8,953 nt of DNA from a virus (Duplodnaviria; Heunggongvirae; Uroviricota; Caudoviricetes): IMG/VR virus record IMGVR_UViG_2778261177_000008. The stretch is one strand, 5' to 3'. The notes beneath the pieces are model-generated. The model made no database searches, had not been told where the DNA came from, and saw only the letters and a list, made by a program, of their open reading frames with translations. Positions 965 to 7,508 of this stretch are shown here, one piece after another (position 1 is the stretch's first letter; every line of letters starts with the position of its first letter). The translations under genes and the position numbers were made by a program.

Positions 965-1741
965 TTACTTGATAAATCCTGCCGCCTTTCCCCGCCTGTA
1001 TTCCTCCATCAGCCACTGCGCCGGTGTTATTCCCCCAAGGGTGGCGGCGTTAGGCATGCACCCGAAACTTCGCCATGGTGGATGGTAAACGTCTCTCCCT
1101 GTGTCCGGAGGTGTACTCATGGGTTCTGGCTTTGCCTGTATGCTGATCACCGGATCGGGTATCTGCTGTCCGGAAGCCACCTTTTTCGCCCAATCATCGA
1201 GCAGCCTGCGAGCGTGTTTCTCAACCTCAATCTCGCTAAGCTGGCGCTGATACATTGCACGGCGGGTATCACATACGACCCAGTACATAACCGGATGTCG
1301 CCACGGGAATATTTCGGGACCACCAGGATATAAACTTTTTTCCTTGCTGTACCGGTGAAACTCCGCCATCACATCGTCAATGGTGACGCCAAGAACCATC
1401 TTGCTGTCTTTACACCACTTGATGAATTGCCCTGGCGACGGCCAGAACGGAGATTCACTGGCGCGGGCGTGGCGCATACCAGCGTTAACCTGTTCCATTG
1501 TAGTGATCCCATTCTCCAGAAACGCAAGCATCCATTGCTTACGGAATTCATTAAGTTTGTTCTGCTCCCTTATGGTCGAAACGCTTGCAGGAAATGCAGC
1601 CTGTAACTGGACAAATAGTTCATTGAAAATTCTAGCAACCTGCTCCTTTTTGCCATTGCTGTCACGCCGCTCTTCATGCACAGCAACACCATGCTCACGT
1701 AAGCGATCGTACTCATTGAGAAGTTCTGGAGTTGATTTCAT
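965..1741 (-). CDS. Replication protein P-like (DnaB helicase loader)
   Basis: 258-aa ORF. The segment FPASVSTIREQNKLNEFRKQWMLAFLENGITTMEQVNAGMRHARASESPFWPSPGQFIKWC closely parallels lambda P as I recall it (FPAS...QW.LAF.ENGITTMEQVNAGMR...PF.PSPGQF..WC). SD AAGGGG 6 nt upstream of ATG (1741-1739). Start overlaps the upstream O-like gene by 29 nt. Confidence 0.85.
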   Translation of the reverse strand: MKSTPELLNEYDRLREHGVAVHEERRDSNGKKEQVARIFNELFVQLQAAFPASVSTIREQNKLNEFRKQWMLAFLENGITTMEQVNAGMRHARASESPFWPSPGQFIKWCKDSKMVLGVTIDDVMAEFHRYSKEKSLYPGGPEIFPWRHPVMYWVVCDTRRAMYQRQLSEIEVEKHARRLLDDWAKKVASGQQIPDPVISIQAKPEPMSTPPDTGRDVYHPPWRSFGCMPNAATLGGITPAQWLMEEYRRGKAAGFIK

Positions 1742-2543
1742 CCCACACCCCTTCTATCCAGTCAGTGTTATTCCAGTCAAGCTCATCGCTTTTCCCGGCA
1801 TTTTTTGATTTTCCCCTGATATGATTTACGTGCCTGGCGAATTTTTGTTCCCACTGAACCTGCGTGAACACTTTGCCCTCAGCCATCCAGTAATCCCGGA
1901 ATGCAGCAAGTTCAGCAGGTGTAAATTCCGGTTCCGGCAGGGCCGTTCCCCACAGCGCAGCACGCCGCCGAAAATCTGGCGACGGTAGCCAGCCATCTGT
2001 CATCGGAAATTTCCCGATGGGTTCACTCAGGCCATCCAGAAATTCAGGTTCTGCCACCTGCAACGGCGTACTGTTCGCTTCACTGGTCGGAGCACCCTCG
2101 CGCACGTGCGCTATGTGTGGGGTTTTATATATATCCTCCTCTTCCTCTTCCTCTGGTAACTCCTTTTGTAACGCTGTTGGCGTTACTTTTTGCGTTACTC
2201 GTTTTCGATGCTCTGCCACTCTTCTATTCGTAAGTGCACGTTTTTTCGATGATTCTCCATTGTGTCGCTCAAAGTTTGGAAGAATTAGTTTGCCGTCATG
2301 ATAAGCAAGCCATCCGACGCTAATGAGGGCGTCAGCAAATCCTGTAATAAAAGCGAGTCTATCAAGTACTCCTTTTGTAACGCTGCCAGCGTTACCGTCT
2401 ATTGTTTGCTGGTCAGCCCATGCCCATATACGAACCAGCTTTCCAAGAACAGCATCTGGATCAATACCCAGAATTTCTGCTATCTGAAAAATTTCAGGTT
2501 TATCAGGAGTGATAACTTCAACCTTAATCCAGCTGCTTGCCAT
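1713..2543 (-). CDS. Replication initiator / replisome organizer (O-equivalent) with DnaT-like C-terminal domain
   Basis: ORF track gives 1713..2561 with a GTG start; I prefer ATG at 2543-2541 (MASSWIKV...), which has SD GAGGGG about 6 nt upstream. The C-terminal GKFPMTDGWLPSPDFRRRAALWGTALPEPEFTPAELAAFRDYWMAEGKVFTQVQWEQKFARHV closely matches E. coli DnaT as I recall it ([26 protein letters not shown]...[20 protein letters not shown]). An acidic EEEEEED linker separates the two halves. Sits immediately upstream of the P-like gene, as O does in lambda. Confidence 0.8.
   Translation of the reverse strand: MASSWIKVEVITPDKPEIFQIAEILGIDPDAVLGKLVRIWAWADQQTIDGNAGSVTKGVLDRLAFITGFADALISVGWLAYHDGKLILPNFERHNGESSKKRALTNRRVAEHRKRVTQKVTPTALQKELPEEEEEEDIYKTPHIAHVREGAPTSEANSTPLQVAEPEFLDGLSEPIGKFPMTDGWLPSPDFRRRAALWGTALPEPEFTPAELAAFRDYWMAEGKVFTQVQWEQKFARHVNHIRGKSKNAGKSDELDWNNTDWIEGVWDEINSRTSQ
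2160..2405. repeat. Iteron-like repeats (putative replication origin) inside the O-equivalent gene
   Basis: Two perfect 19-bp palindromes GTAACGC-N5-GCGTTAC at 2168-2186 and 2387-2405, plus an extra GCGTTAC at 2192-2198. Both palindromes sit in a shared 17-bp direct repeat ctccttttgtaacgctg (2160-2176 and 2379-2395). A short AT-rich tract TTTTATATATAT lies at 2123-2134. Confidence 0.6.
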
Positions 2544-2736
2544 AGGTTTCCCCTCTTGCACTCTTTAGTGCACAAGCAAATTCATTACGATGGCGGTTGG
2601 CGCTATTCATTGCACATTCAACACATGTTCCGTTCAGAACATACCTTTCAGAGAGATGGCCGTGACGGCACCGCTTTCCTGTGAAATAGCGATTTAACCC
2701 GGCTTTTGCGGCCTCCATTCTGGTTACTATCTTCAA
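2524..2736 (-). CDS. Small putative zinc-binding protein in the cII-equivalent position
   Basis: 64-70 aa ORF; start is either TTG at 2736-2734 (SD AAGGGG about 8 nt upstream) or ATG at 2718-2716. Cys/His cluster CRHGHLSERYVLNGTCVEC suggests a zinc ribbon. Overlaps the start of the O-like gene by 20 nt. No confident family match. Confidence 0.45.
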   Translation of the reverse strand: MKIVTRMEAAKAGLNRYFTGKRCRHGHLSERYVLNGTCVECAMNSANRHRNEFACALKSARGETYGKQLD

Positions 2737-2814
2737 TTTTTCCGCCCCTTTTTGTTATTGATATTGGCTATTTTGCACAATTGGAAAATTTGATCAACCA
2801 GATTTGGTTTTTTA

Positions 2815-2829
2815 TTACCTTTGAGGTAC
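2815..2829. promoter_or_regulatory. Isolated operator-like palindrome TTACCtttgaGGTAC (one arm imperfect)
   Basis: Member of the TTACC-N5-GGTAA family. On the minus strand it is followed after 17 nt by a -35-like TTGATC, upstream of the zinc-binding ORF. Confidence 0.45.
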
Positions 2830-2840
2830 GAATAGATATG

Positions 2841-2864
2841 AAAAGACCGCCGGATGGCGGTCTA
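2841..2864 (-). terminator. Putative intrinsic terminator downstream of the cro-like gene (tR1-like position)
   Basis: Inverted repeat AGACCGCC (2845-2852), loop GGAT, GGCGGTCT (2857-2864). On the minus-strand transcript the hairpin is followed by UUUU then CAUAUC. Lies about 20 nt past the cro-like stop codon (2885-2887). Confidence 0.55.
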
Positions 2865-2884
2865 CAGAGGGTTGTGGCTGGATA

Positions 2885-3115
2885 TCATGAGTAGAAGAAG
2901 TATGCCAGTTCTGCTTTTGAGCGCAGCCATTGTCTTGTTTTACAGGCTTTAAAAAGCCCATTCATCAATACCTTACCTGGCATTTTGCGCTTACCTGTTA
3001 AGTGAGTCTGGATATAGTGACTCGTCGTTCCGGCTTCCTGTGCGAAGGCTTCACGCTCATCCGGAGTAAGTGCAAGCCAGTGCTTTTTGAAATCAAAATG
3101 TCCGTTATCGCTCAT
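2885..3115 (-). CDS. Cro-like small HTH DNA-binding regulator
   Basis: 76-aa ORF with a helix-turn-helix-like segment (REAFAQEAGTTSHYIQTHLTGKRK). Transcribed divergently from the repressor gene across an operator-rich intergenic region and followed by a terminator, as for lambda cro. Confidence 0.6.
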   Translation of the reverse strand: MSDNGHFDFKKHWLALTPDEREAFAQEAGTTSHYIQTHLTGKRKMPGKVLMNGLFKACKTRQWLRSKAELAYFFYS

Positions 3116-3140
3116 AGCTATTGCCTGATATTTATTTCAG

Positions 3141-3214
3141 ATAATAAATATTCACCCATAAGGTAACAAAAATCAAGGATAGTTACCTATGAGGTGCATT
3201 TACCTGATGGGTAA
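3141..3214. promoter_or_regulatory. Divergent promoter/operator region (OR-like) between the cro-like and repressor genes
   Basis: Three operator-like palindromes: 3152-3166 (TCACCcataaGGTAA), 3183-3197 (TTACCtatgaGGTGC) and 3200-3214 (TTACCtgatgGGTAA, perfect). Centres are spaced 31 and 17 bp apart. Leftward promoter candidates on the minus strand: -35 TTGATT (plus 3171-3176) or TTGTTA (plus 3164-3169), with -10 TATTAT (plus 3141-3146). The site at 3152-3166 overlaps the -35/spacer. Confidence 0.6.
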
Positions 3215-3269
3215 TATTGCTTTAAATTGAATCATCTACTGATTCATATATGAGGCGATTTTCCAGAAA

Positions 3270-3854
3270 ATGAAAAGTATCCAGGACGTCCGCAGGCAAA
3301 ATCTCAACGACTTGATCGACCGTGAATTCAATGGTGTTCAGACGCGGATGGCAGAAAAACTTGGAACTCAGGCAAATCTGGTAAACCGCTGGGCTCTTGG
3401 CAAGAAGGTTATCGGCGACCAGGTTGCGCGAAAAATTGAAGCTGCCGCCAATAAACCCCGTAACTGGCTTGATATCGATCGCTCGCTTTCTCAGGAAGGT
3501 TTTCAGCCTGTCGGCCCAAGCGACATTGGCCAGCTGGCGGCTCACAACCTGGAACGCTGGATGAGCGAAAGCCGCGACCTTTCAACACAGGGAAAACTTC
3601 ACCGCGCATCCGGCGTAGCCCAGGTGACAATCAGCCGCCTGTTAAACAATGAGGTCAGCGTTTCCATTTCCACCCTGGAGAATGTTGCATCCGCATTCGG
3701 GCGTCACGGCTATGAATTACTGATTCACCCGCACGACCCTGCGACCATCAACTATGATCGCTCGCGCTACGCATTGTTACCCGAAACCGAGAAAGCAAAG
3801 ATCGAAAGTTACATTGAATTTGTCATCAACCAGAACGAAAAAAGCAAACAATAA
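3270..3854 (+). CDS. Putative prophage repressor (CI-equivalent) with two tandem HTH_XRE-type domains
   Basis: 194-aa ORF with two HTH-like segments (GVQTRMAEKLGTQANLVNRWALGKK and LHRASGVAQVTISRLLNNEVS). No recognisable LexA-like S24 peptidase domain. Sits between the operator cluster and a strong terminator, divergent from the cro-like gene. No good SD: GAGG is 14 nt upstream of the ATG. Confidence 0.7.
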   Translation: MKSIQDVRRQNLNDLIDREFNGVQTRMAEKLGTQANLVNRWALGKKVIGDQVARKIEAAANKPRNWLDIDRSLSQEGFQPVGPSDIGQLAAHNLERWMSESRDLSTQGKLHRASGVAQVTISRLLNNEVSVSISTLENVASAFGRHGYELLIHPHDPATINYDRSRYALLPETEKAKIESYIEFVINQNEKSKQ

Positions 3855-3874
3855 AACTATAGTTTTCAGCAAGT

Positions 3875-3898
3875 AAGCCGCCTCATGGCGGCTTTTTT
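3875..3898 (+). terminator. Rho-independent terminator after the repressor gene
   Basis: GC-rich 8-bp stem AAGCCGCC (3875-3882), loop TCAT, GGCGGCTT (3887-3894), running into TTTTTT (3893-3898). Lies 20 nt downstream of the repressor stop TAA (3852-3854). Confidence 0.75.
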
Positions 3899-3911
3899 AT
3901 TGCCAGATAGA

Positions 3912-3988
3912 TTACCTTACGGGTAATTTTTTTAACTCATATCTATTGACACCAAACCAAATAAGCATAATTATTACCTCAACGGTAA
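3912..3988 (+). promoter_or_regulatory. pL-like early-left promoter with two flanking operators
   Basis: Perfect palindromes at 3912-3926 (TTACCttacgGGTAA) and 3974-3988 (TTACCtcaacGGTAA), with consensus -35 TTGACA at 3946-3951. The -10 is AT-rich (AATTAT at 3969-3974 with a 17-nt spacer) and overlaps the second operator. A GGTAA half-site lies at 3996-4000. Spacing is operator, 19 nt, -35, 22 nt, operator. Confidence 0.65.
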
Positions 3989-4007
3989 CAAACCGAGGTA
4001 ACAAGTT

Positions 4008-4160
4008 ATGCAGTGGAAAATCATCAACGGTTGGTACTGCGTTACTGCATGCGGATTCATGAGCTGGAAGTTCCGCACCTTACAGGAAGGCATTAAGTGG
4101 GCTTTCGTCAGCAAAGAAGCTCGCGATGTGGCCAACGATAACGAGATATGGGAGGGCTGA
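4008..4160 (+). CDS. Small hypothetical protein (50 aa), first ORF of the early-left operon
   Basis: ATG at 4008 with GAGG 9 nt upstream; 50 codons, stop TGA at 4158-4160. Sequence MQWKIINGWYCVTACGFMSWKFRTLQEGIKWAFVSKEARDVANDNEIWEG is Trp-rich with a hydrophobic N-terminal segment. Too short for the ORF track. Not Arg-rich, so not N-like. Confidence 0.4.
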   Translation: MQWKIINGWYCVTACGFMSWKFRTLQEGIKWAFVSKEARDVANDNEIWEG

Positions 4161-4162
4161 TA

Positions 4163-4462
4163 ATGAACGTTAATCAGCAGAAAAATCTTCAAAAAATCAT
4201 GCTGGCATTCGACAAGGACTACCGTCTGTCAGAACAGCTATATGACCGACAAGTTGAACTGATTGAGAGTATCCGGCTTCATCAACTGGCATCAACTTTC
4301 GACGTTGTAACAGTTAAAGGCGTTCGCCAGGAAGTACTGGAGGCCGCTAAAGACAGCCCTGAGTTCGAAGAACTGATGGATTCCTACCGGCGCGAGGCAA
4401 TGGCAATTATCGCCCGCTGGGATCTGGCTGATCAGCTTGATGGGCAGAGGGACGCGGCATGA
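4163..4462 (+). CDS. Hypothetical phage protein (99 aa)
   Basis: ORF track starts at 4148, but ATG 4163 has a strong SD GGAGGG (4151-4156) and begins 2 nt after the upstream stop. The stop overlaps the exonuclease start (ATGA at 4459-4462). No family recognised. Confidence 0.55.
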   Translation: MNVNQQKNLQKIMLAFDKDYRLSEQLYDRQVELIESIRLHQLASTFDVVTVKGVRQEVLEAAKDSPEFEELMDSYRREAMAIIARWDLADQLDGQRDAA

Positions 4463-6565: not shown

Positions 6566-6865
6566 GTGAGAAAGTTAAGCCGACTTGAAAAATATCACAT
6601 GAACAAGGTTTCAATGCGCAGTCCGTCAAAGATTGTCGCCGTTACTCCTGCGGCGATAGAGATCGAAAAACGCGCGATTGAAAGAGAGAAAAAAGGGCAG
6701 TTCCGCATTGCCGCTCACCTTTGGCTTCAGTGTATGGATGTTGCTTCTGGTGATGTTGAGCGTGCAAGGATCGCGGTTCGCAGGGACCAATGTATCACAA
6801 AAGGTAACGGCCTTCGCCGTGGCGACTATAGCGGCATAGGATGTTGTGGGGTGGTTTATGACTAA
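6566..6865 (+). CDS. Small regulatory protein, PerC-like (tentative)
   Basis: 99-aa ORF; GTG start at 6566 with GAGGG about 9 nt upstream (alternative ATG at 6599). The segment EKKGQFRIAAHLWLQCMDVA...ERARIAVRRDQCI resembles the PerC-family motif as I remember it (LE..G.WRRAA..W...M...RR..C); unverified. Stop TAA 6863-6865 overlaps the methyltransferase start. Confidence 0.4.
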   Translation: MRKLSRLEKYHMNKVSMRSPSKIVAVTPAAIEIEKRAIEREKKGQFRIAAHLWLQCMDVASGDVERARIAVRRDQCITKGNGLRRGDYSGIGCCGVVYD

Positions 6866-7508
6866 GAAATACACACTAATCTATGCAGATCCACCCTGGG
6901 TATACCGGGACAAAGCCGCAGATGGTAATCGCGGTGCCGGTTTTAAATATCCGGTTATGAGTGTGCTGGACATCTGCCGCCTTCCTGTGTGGGATTTGGC
7001 CGATGAAAACTGTCTGTTGGCCATGTGGTGGGTGCCAACACAACCACTCGAAGCACTTAAAGTTGTTGAAGCATGGGGATTCCGTCTGATGACCATGAAG
7101 GGCTTCACGTGGATAAAATGTGGTAGTCGACAACCAGATAAACTGGTTATGGGTATGGGTCACATGACTCGCGCCAATAGTGAAGATTGCCTGTTTGCGG
7201 TAAAGGGAAAACTACCTACGCGCATTAATGCAGGGATCGTTCAGTCATTTACCGCACCGCGGCTTGAGCATTCAAGAAAACCAGATATCGTTCGTGAAAA
7301 ACTTGTGCAATTGTTAGGCGATGTTTCTCGCATTGAACTGTTCGCCCGCCAGTCATCTCATGGTTTCGATGTTTGGGGTAATCAGTGCGAAGACCCGGCA
7401 GTGCAACTACATCCTGGATACGCGTTGGATATTGGCGGATTAACAAATGCATTCAGCAATGCTCCGCTGTCACCAACAGACAACCAGGGGCAGGAGCGTG
7501 CAGCATGA
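6858..7508 (+). CDS. MT-A70-family DNA N6-adenine methyltransferase (orphan, phage-type)
   Basis: The N-terminal YTLIYADPPW contains the canonical DPPW catalytic motif of N6-adenine methyltransferases, and the length and layout fit phage MT-A70 enzymes. Start is ATG 6858, or GTG 6846 as in the ORF track. No restriction endonuclease gene is adjacent. Stop TGA 7506-7508 overlaps the next ATG. Confidence 0.8.
   Translation: MTKKYTLIYADPPWVYRDKAADGNRGAGFKYPVMSVLDICRLPVWDLADENCLLAMWWVPTQPLEALKVVEAWGFRLMTMKGFTWIKCGSRQPDKLVMGMGHMTRANSEDCLFAVKGKLPTRINAGIVQSFTAPRLEHSRKPDIVREKLVQLLGDVSRIELFARQSSHGFDVWGNQCEDPAVQLHPGYALDIGGLTNAFSNAPLSPTDNQGQERAA

Follow-up and report, generated by a model that had tools for sequence, protein, structure and literature searches.

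The DNA analysed here is an 8,953-bp stretch from IMG/VR virus record IMGVR_UViG_2778261177_000008 (hereafter the window), which is the immunity and early region of a temperate podovirus prophage of the phiV10/epsilon15 type, genus Uetakevirus. Positions 2400-4300 are 97-99% identical to Escherichia phages HEMP4, ZX5, TL-2011b and phiV10, and the immunity region is matched in 562 of 5,426 complete Escherichia coli genomes. Our subject is the short gap between the cro-like gene and the replication genes, in which a hairpin, an operator-like site for the phage repressor (Rep) and a pair of promoter-like hexamers, here named P2, follow one another within about 100 base pairs (bp). The features of this locus, in the direction of transcription and with distances in nucleotides (nt), are as follows:

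3115 to 2885, minus strand: cro-like gene, 76 amino acids, matching PHROG 35 'transcriptional repressor' (E 5.6e-13); predicted to be the sole gene of the PR unit
2863 to 2844, minus strand: GC-rich hairpin, AGACCGCC-ATCC-GGCGGTCT, with an 8-bp stem, 6 G-C pairs and a 4-nt loop
2830 to 2843, minus strand: U-rich tail of the hairpin, TTTCATATCTATTC
2815 to 2829, palindrome, no strand: predicted second-tier Rep operator, TTACCTTTGAGGTAC, one mismatch from TTACC-N5-GGTAA
2796 to 2809: AACC-N6-GGTT palindrome, AACCAGATTTGGTT, between the operator and the -35 of P2, which it adjoins
2797 to 2792, minus strand: TTGATC, predicted -35 of P2, inside the palindrome TTGATCAA
2770 to 2775, minus strand: CAAAAT, predicted -10 of P2, 16-nt spacer
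2763-2765, about 2764, minus strand: predicted P2 start, leaving a 27-nt leader to the TTG start at 2736
2524 to 2736, minus strand: gene for a 70-amino-acid Cys/His-rich protein, TTG start, AGGGG Shine-Dalgarno at 2745-2749; first gene of the predicted P2 unit
1713-2561, minus strand: DnaT-like replication gene (Pfam DnaT match)
965-1741, minus strand: lambda-P-like replication gene (Pfam Phage_lambda_P match)

A preliminary description of this stretch, made from its letters and open reading frames, had picked out a hairpin with a U-tract about 20 nt after the cro-like gene, a TTACC-N5-GGTAC site, and a minus-strand TTGATC hexamer as a possible -35. All three are present, with the coordinates listed above; the minus-strand assignment of the operator falls away, since it has no meaning for a palindromic site, and the new 5' end that had been expected near 2790-2810 is predicted instead at 2763-2765, downstream of CAAAAT.

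The hairpin starts 21 nt beyond the end of the cro-like stop codon (final base 2885) and has the properties expected of the stem-loop of an intrinsic terminator, being stable, G+C-rich, on the transcribed strand and placed after a gene. Its predicted RNA fold has an energy of -15 kcal/mol (z = -4.9), and none of 200 shuffles folded as well. Hairpins with eight pairs, six of them G-C, occur only twice in the window, immediately after the repressor gene and immediately after the cro-like gene, each on the correct strand, and a generic terminator scan is not enriched over the window as a whole (13 found vs 9.2 expected). The tail directly after the stem reads UUUUCAUAUCU, four U residues followed by an interrupted tract, with a T-score of 2.9-3.6. 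In the GenBank record of phiV10 this hairpin already carries the annotation of a putative rho-independent terminator. A role as a terminator for plus-strand transcription was rejected, since no T-run follows it on that strand.

Terminator strength was scored with the d'Aubenton-Carafa discriminant, for the post-cro hairpins of 13 lineages as well as for two terminators used for comparison:

Post-cro hairpin of the window: +7 to +17, positive but modest
Repressor-gene terminator of the window: +23 to +44
Strong control terminator: +30
Cronobacter, Serratia and Yersinia homologues of the post-cro hairpin: +35 to +41, as high as the strong control
Enterobacter asburiae homologue: +25
Pseudocitrobacter homologue: about -8
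Salmonella and Klebsiella phage homologues: -34 to -39

The hairpin is present at the same position in all 13 lineages and its score is positive in eight of them. The tail TTTCATATCTATTC hardly varies among the E. coli, Enterobacter, Pseudescherichia and Pseudocitrobacter lineages, with a single C-to-A variant (locus L081), and is replaced by TTTTTTAT in Cronobacter, Serratia and Yersinia. With terminators as strong as those predicted in the last three genera, the genes downstream would need a promoter of their own. Across the gap from the cro stop codon to the operator (2830-2884 and its homologues in the 13 lineages), the terminator score also runs inversely to the C-richness of the spacer. 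The ratio of C to G is 0.8-1.3 where intrinsic terminators score best (Cronobacter, Serratia and Yersinia), 2.6 in the E. coli type, and 3.0-4.0 in the Salmonella and Klebsiella phages, which have the weakest U-tracts. That the lineages poorest in U-tracts have the spacers richest in C and poorest in G hints that the post-cro stop may be of the Rho type in some of them, a lead drawn from few and related lineages.

The repressor that would act at this locus is encoded divergently from the cro-like gene, across the OR region, and its 194-amino-acid product has two helix-turn-helix-like regions. It matches SPC32H Rep (PDB 5d50) over its whole length (residues 1-190, E 3.5e-42). SPC32H Rep binds DNA through its N-terminal domain, dimerizes through the middle one and forms a tetramer through a C-terminal domain of a type found in DNA-looping regulators; the two DNA-binding ends of the tetramer lie about 100 Angstrom apart (PMC9986798). 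The protein is inactivated by an antirepressor, not by cleavage (PMC9986798, PMC9638917). The gene and the principal Rep sites of the window are these:

3270-3854, plus strand: repressor gene, 194 amino acids
3141 to 3214: OR region, with the predicted PR -35 at 3164-3169 and -10 at 3141-3146 (minus strand)
3152-3166, 3183-3197 and 3200-3214: the three Rep sites of the OR region
3912 and 3974 (PL), 3200 (OR), 851 and 913 (gap between the P-like and DUF1064 genes): the five perfect copies of TTACC-N5-GGTAA

When up to two mismatches are allowed, TTACC-N5-GGTAA occurs 11 times in the window against 2.6 expected, a number that none of 200 shuffles reached. A weight matrix built from the perfect sites in 12 genomes sets eight window positions apart from the background, which scores 1 or less. 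The site at 2815-2829 scores 14.5, seventh among 8,935 positions (the OR site at 3152 scores 14.9), and the six positions ranked above it are the accepted OL, OR and post-replication operators. The homologous site ranks sixth to ninth in 10 of the 12 genomes, which come from E. coli, Enterobacter, Salmonella, Klebsiella, Pseudescherichia and Pseudocitrobacter. No relative found, Cronobacter, Serratia and Yersinia among them, departs from the TTACC half-site, with Rep identity falling as low as 41%, and the promoter-proximal half-site GGTAAT (minus strand) is invariant in all 14 lineages of the alignment described below. The site at 2815-2829 thus combines a palindrome with one mismatch, a cognate repressor encoded nearby and a position conserved in relatives, as do SPC32H-type Rep operators, and we predict it to be a second-tier operator of this kind. 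It lacks the asymmetric, single-orientation form of a stoperator, as it and all related sites are palindromic. The centre of the site lies at about -60 relative to the predicted P2 start and adjoins an A/T-rich stretch.

The prediction of a sigma-70 promoter, P2, at 2770-2797 comes from an alignment of the gap between cro and the next gene in 14 lineages (Rep 41-100% identical). Two blocks, GGTAAT and GGTTGAT, are invariant in all 14, and their flanks diverge: the 3' end of cro, the hairpin loop and the leader vary freely. The distance from GGTAA to TTGAT is exactly 17 nt, with one extra base in SPC32H, and (C/G/T)AAAAT is found 16-17 nt past the TTGAT(C) hexamer in 12 of the 14. The two hexamers of the window match the consensus at 8 of 12 positions, retaining the TTG of the -35 and A2 and T6 of the -10. 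A TTACC half-site follows the P2 -10 in most relatives, as at PL and P3 (below); the window itself has AGCC there. In BUCT554 the distal site has been lost and a one-mismatch site lies over the -10/+1 region of P2 instead, implying that Rep control of P2 seems to be the feature that is retained. A search of IMG/VR returned only near-identical copies (79 loci, 51 distinct full-length spacer sequences), which inform on polymorphism, not on divergence. Within these loci, variation falls in the hairpin loop, the outer half of the operator and the centre of the AACC-N6-GGTT palindrome; the stem, GGTAA and CAAAAT are fixed, and the -35 is TTGATC, with few cases of TTGATA.

Two other promoter candidates in the gap were discarded. 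A plus-strand PRE-like promoter using TTGATC at 2790-2795 was rejected, as phiV10 and other relatives have AAGATC there and the minus-strand TTGATC is invariant; a plus-strand match at 2861-2888 is not conserved in Tyrion. The P2 -35 also holds a Dam site, GATC (2792-2795), and the phage encodes an adenine methylase (6846-7508). The occurrence of natural TTGATA variants indicates that GATC is not essential and weakens the idea of Dam regulation through the -35.

The AACC-N6-GGTT palindrome is itself conserved in part: its GGTT half is invariant in the 14 lineages and the CC of its left half is kept in 13 of them (Cronobacter has TC). AACC and GGTT are both fixed in the 79 near-identical loci, where centre position 5 takes all four bases. 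In phiV10 there are three perfect copies (20539, 24736 and 33132) against 0.43 expected, all of them 6-30 nt from a Rep site. As a site for a second regulator the palindrome was set aside, because the left half is not kept in the Enterobacter and Klebsiella phages and the geometry differs between sites.

The arrangement found after cro is not unique within the window. Three cassettes share one layout, in which a terminator is followed by an operator, 17-19 A/T-rich nt, a -35, 16-17 nt, and a -10 abutting TTACC (AGCC at P2 in the window):

PL, 3875 to 3988, plus strand: repressor-gene terminator 3875-3894; distal operator 3912-3926; 19-nt gap to the -35; -35 TTGACA 3946-3951; 17-nt spacer; -10 AATTAT 3969-3974; proximal operator 3974-3988
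P2, minus strand: terminator 2844-2863; distal operator 2815-2829; 17-nt gap; TTGATC; 16 nt; CAAAAT; proximal AGCC
P3, 851 to 959, minus strand: short hairpin with T7 at 940-959 after the P-like gene; distal operator 913-927; 19-nt gap; -35 TTGATT 888-893; 17-nt spacer; -10 TTTAAT 865-870; proximal operator 851-865; then the DUF1064 gene

At P3, two perfect Rep operators exactly 62 bp apart bracket TTGATT-17 nt-TTTAAT, and most relatives preserve this 62-bp interval between the operators at both PL and P3. At the P3 position a terminator is annotated in phiV10 and a repressor site in epsilon15. Given the layout shared with PL and P3, P2 looks like their paralogue with both operators weakened.

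These elements exist, are conserved and are laid out as at PL and P3. From their arrangement we infer, with a probability of roughly 60%, that the post-cro locus is a terminator-operator-promoter cassette that splits the rightward early region into separate transcription units. On this account, PR (start about 3134) would make a message of about 300 nt carrying only the cro-like gene, and the intrinsic terminator at 2844-2863 with its U-rich tail would end much of PR transcription. The replication operon, comprising the Cys/His-rich protein, the DnaT-like initiator and the lambda-P-like loader, would be driven separately by P2. In a lysogen, P2 would be held down by Rep occupying the weak site some 60 bp ahead of the P2 start, perhaps cooperatively with the OR sites at a distance of 337-385 bp or with the degenerate half-site at the -10. 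Once the antirepressor takes Rep away, PL, PR, P2 and P3 would all fire directly, so that the phage probably needs no antiterminator of the lambda N type.

Several observations weigh against this account. The match of the P2 hexamers to the consensus is under the scan threshold of 9 and was missed by the promoter scan, so that the argument for P2 is one of conservation; moreover, Serratia lacks the -10 and Yersinia has it at a shifted position. The lone site at -60 is clear of the core promoter, and repression from there would require a further mechanism. The post-cro operator is never perfect, its mismatch always falling in the cro-proximal half. Serratia, Yersinia and E. asburiae (Rep 41-54% identical) retain only the promoter-proximal GGTAAT half, and the site of ST512phi13.3 scores just 3.4. 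As for the terminator, the GC hairpin retained by the Salmonella and Klebsiella phages is followed by a C-rich tail and has no U-tract, and no terminator is annotated at this position in the epsilon15 record. Covariation in the hairpin is weak: there is one compensatory pair (A-U, G-U, G-C), which 133 of 500 shuffles equalled, and the other stem changes give G-U pairs, so that the variation is compatible with an RNA hairpin and not distinguishable from shuffles (automatic alignment of the distant hairpins was poor).

Some of the same observations fit a different account, which we regard as improbable, in which the hairpin is leaky, the replication genes are expressed mainly by read-through from PR, TTGATC and CAAAAT are no promoter, and the Rep site serves in lysogens as a stoperator-like roadblock. 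The E. coli-type terminator is indeed only moderate next to that of the repressor gene, its counterparts in the Salmonella and Klebsiella phages are non-canonical, and the Rep site lies in the transcribed path, 14 nt past the stem. Rep sites also precede many units in phiV10 and epsilon15, recalling the stoperators of mycobacteriophages (PMC9283540). Read-through would leave unexplained, however, the invariant GGTTGAT, its fixed 17-nt distance from GGTAAT, the -10 in 12 of the 14 lineages and the match to the PL and P3 layout. The strong terminators of Cronobacter, Serratia and Yersinia would leave the replication genes short of transcripts, and the site is palindromic and weak, whereas stoperators are oriented. 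The preliminary description had left terminator leakiness and an internal repressor-controlled promoter as alternatives for expression of the replication genes; the comparison of 14 lineages favours the internal promoter.

Somewhat less probable again is that 2815-2829 acts as a flanking operator, from which a Rep tetramer bridges to the OR sites 337-385 bp away and loops out cro, tightening the repression of PR or tuning the repressor gene, much as is envisaged for FL and FR of phage 186 CI, with any effect on the downstream genes being secondary. A weak site about 340 bp from the main operators would suit this function, as would a tetrameric repressor whose DNA-binding ends are about 100 Angstrom apart and whose tetramerization domain is of the looping type (PMC9986798). 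Among the lineages, however, the distance to the nearest OR site varies (325, 336, 337, 340 and 341 bp), so that helical phasing is not conserved; the site is instead in fixed register with the P2 -35, and BUCT554 has moved its good site to the P2 -10. Both read-through and bridging to OR can coexist with a cassette that drives the replication genes from P2.

A third account would supply antitermination by an unrecognized factor, and the searches that bear on it were extended beyond the window. As the preliminary description had stated, the first gene of PL encodes a Trp-rich protein and not an Arg-rich one of the N kind:

4008-4160, plus strand: first PL gene, 50 amino acids, with 5 Trp and 3 Arg

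This protein has no Pfam match and matches only PHROG 898, of unknown function. No antiterminator family was found in Pfam and PHROG scans of 30 proteins (those of the window, 19 of phiV10 and one of epsilon15, gp49), and none is annotated in the complete phiV10 or epsilon15 genomes. An Rfam scan with E values up to 1 gave no matches, and a search for boxA in the window gave two matches against 3.85 expected, neither at the right place and strand. The space from the cro stop codon to the hairpin is 21 nt and the PL leader is about 27 nt, both too short for a nut or put element in its usual place, and no boxA with boxB is found between cro and the terminator or in the PL leader. The earlier statement that no N-like antiterminator is in sight therefore holds for the window, where the searches turned up no N-like protein, nut box or Rfam family, and the wider search for N- or Q-like genes that it had proposed found none in the phiV10 protein scans and annotation or in the epsilon15 annotation. 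Outside the window, a 112-amino-acid PHROG 536 'transcriptional regulator' with no Pfam match is encoded at 38766-39104 in phiV10 (locus L010) and at 39277-39615 in locus L011. In phiV10 and epsilon15 its gene is followed directly by a terminator, Rep sites and the terminase genes, the position of Q in lambda, and it is a candidate late regulator.

We consider it very unlikely that PR transcripts pass the terminator with the help of such a factor, even though several small early proteins have no known function (candidates being the 50-amino-acid Trp-rich, Cys/His-rich and PerC-like proteins, the PHROG 536 regulator in the lambda Q position before a terminator and the late genes, and a cis-acting RNA of the HK022 put type), since the searches above revealed neither an antiterminator family nor an Rfam match, a boxA or room for nut or put, and since every terminator has a promoter-like cassette of its own behind it, so that antitermination is not needed.

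In phage lambda, tR1 is a Rho-dependent terminator preceded by nutR and overridden by N acting at nutR. The window resembles the lambda cro-nutR-tR1-cII region in gene order and in having a terminator right after cro, ahead of the replication-side genes. It differs in having an intrinsic-type hairpin, no nut site and no N-like protein, and in the promoter-like cassette that follows. The label tR1-like, used in the preliminary description, is thus apt for the position of a terminator-like hairpin and for nothing further, as the hairpin is of the intrinsic type and leaves no room for nut.

Dodd and Egan reportedly described the flanking operators FL and FR of phage 186 CI. As is said of those, the post-cro site is a weak repressor site some 300 bp beside the main lytic operator, with a multimeric repressor able to bridge the two; unlike them, it is in register with a downstream promoter and not with OR, and the repressor family is unrelated. 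Like the stoperators of mycobacteriophage L5 and cluster A (PMC9283540), the Rep sites are many and lie in short intergenic gaps, including gaps before late genes. Stoperators, however, are asymmetric and orientation-dependent, number about 20-30 per genome and have a monomeric repressor, which acts on them by blocking elongation, whereas the sites of the present family are palindromic, number about 14 per genome and mostly flank promoter hexamers.

The closest system is the immunity region of phiV10, epsilon15 and SPC32H with its Rep-Ant switch, which has the same gene order, a homologous repressor and the same TTACC-N5-GGTAA sites; in phiV10, TL-2011b and ZX5 the DNA is 97-99% identical across the immunity region. 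The order of genes in the window is lambda-like, with int, an xis-like gene, recombination genes, PL, the repressor gene, OR, cro, an initiator-like gene and a P-like gene. Its genes are arranged as follows:

Plus strand, in order: repressor, then the terminator and PL, the 50-amino-acid protein, a 104-amino-acid protein, a nuclease, RecT, an AlpA-type excisionase, a PerC-like protein and the methylase
After the methylase, opposite strand: P4-type integrase
Minus strand, in order: the 76-amino-acid cro-like protein, the 70-amino-acid Cys/His-rich protein, the DnaT-domain replication protein, the lambda-P-like loader and the DUF1064 protein

The cro-like gene, which diverges from the repressor gene, has counterparts in phiV10 p41 and epsilon15 gp39, and the 70-amino-acid Cys/His-rich protein matches PHROG 1081, of unknown function. 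Within the DnaT-like gene there are two 28-nt direct repeats (2159-2186 and 2368-2395) 209 bp apart, each holding a 19-nt palindrome, GTAACGC-N5-GCGTTAC. The lambda ori lies within gene O, and by analogy these repeats may be origin or iteron elements.

The P2 block also coincides with a change of allele. Homology to phiV10 ends precisely at the conserved TTGATC (about 2792), and downstream of the -35 the window has the TL-2011b-type allele, not the phiV10 type. Likewise, in loci L014-L093, whose repressors are at least 99% identical, two unrelated alleles of the leader and replication module meet at the TTGATC hexamer. The conserved promoter block appears to be a recombination junction between modules.

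Rep-type sites are dispersed well beyond the immunity region. When no more than one mismatch is allowed, the complete phiV10 genome (39 kb) has 14 of them (87, 105, 3252, 20497, 20877, 24692 and 26870, together with those of the immunity region), whereas simple base odds predict about 1.2. Almost all of them fall between genes, and they precede the terminase, head, tail-fibre, lysis and integrase genes. The terminase genes are preceded by a hairpin with a T-run and then by operators. The repressor may therefore gate the late units of phiV10 directly. The curated epsilon15 record marks several such sites as repressor-binding, none of them after the cro-like gene.

We put forward tentatively, as a possibility that we would not hold to be the likelier one, that Uetakeviruses in general have a lambda-like order of genes without antitermination and are organized instead as a chain of Rep-gated cassettes. 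Such a chain would span PL, PR-cro, P2 with the replication genes, P3, and units lying ahead of the genes for terminase, head, tail fibre and lysis, and a single tetrameric repressor sensitive to antirepressor would gate each cassette directly. Graded operators, with perfect pairs 62 bp apart at one end and the deliberately weak P2 site at the other, may set timing or dosage, and the post-cro stop may have switched between intrinsic and Rho types among lineages.

Parts of this picture are already known, namely the hairpin as a terminator, from the phiV10 record, and the dispersed repressor sites, from the epsilon15 record. The post-cro operator and P2 are unannotated in the records of phiV10, TL-2011b, Tyrion, BUCT554, epsilon15, SPC32H, PAT1, BUCT711 and ST512-KPC3phi13.3. 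The paper on ZX5, a near-identical phage, gives four predicted promoters only, with no operator mapping and no mention of a terminator (PMC9782041). The operator, P2 and the reading of the locus as a cassette are new relative to the nine phage records compared, and may have been described earlier in the primary SPC32H or epsilon15 literature.

The finding is an ordinary refinement of a known phage family and changes no general principle. If it is correct, it would fill a gap in the wiring of phiV10/epsilon15-type prophages, which include O-antigen-converting phages and phages used for reporters, in that the replication genes would be turned on by their own Rep-gated promoter and not by antitermination from PR. 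The promoter, the weak operator and the terminator would then offer handles for engineering, and the locus would be a compact natural case of the insulation of transcription units by terminator-operator-promoter cassettes.

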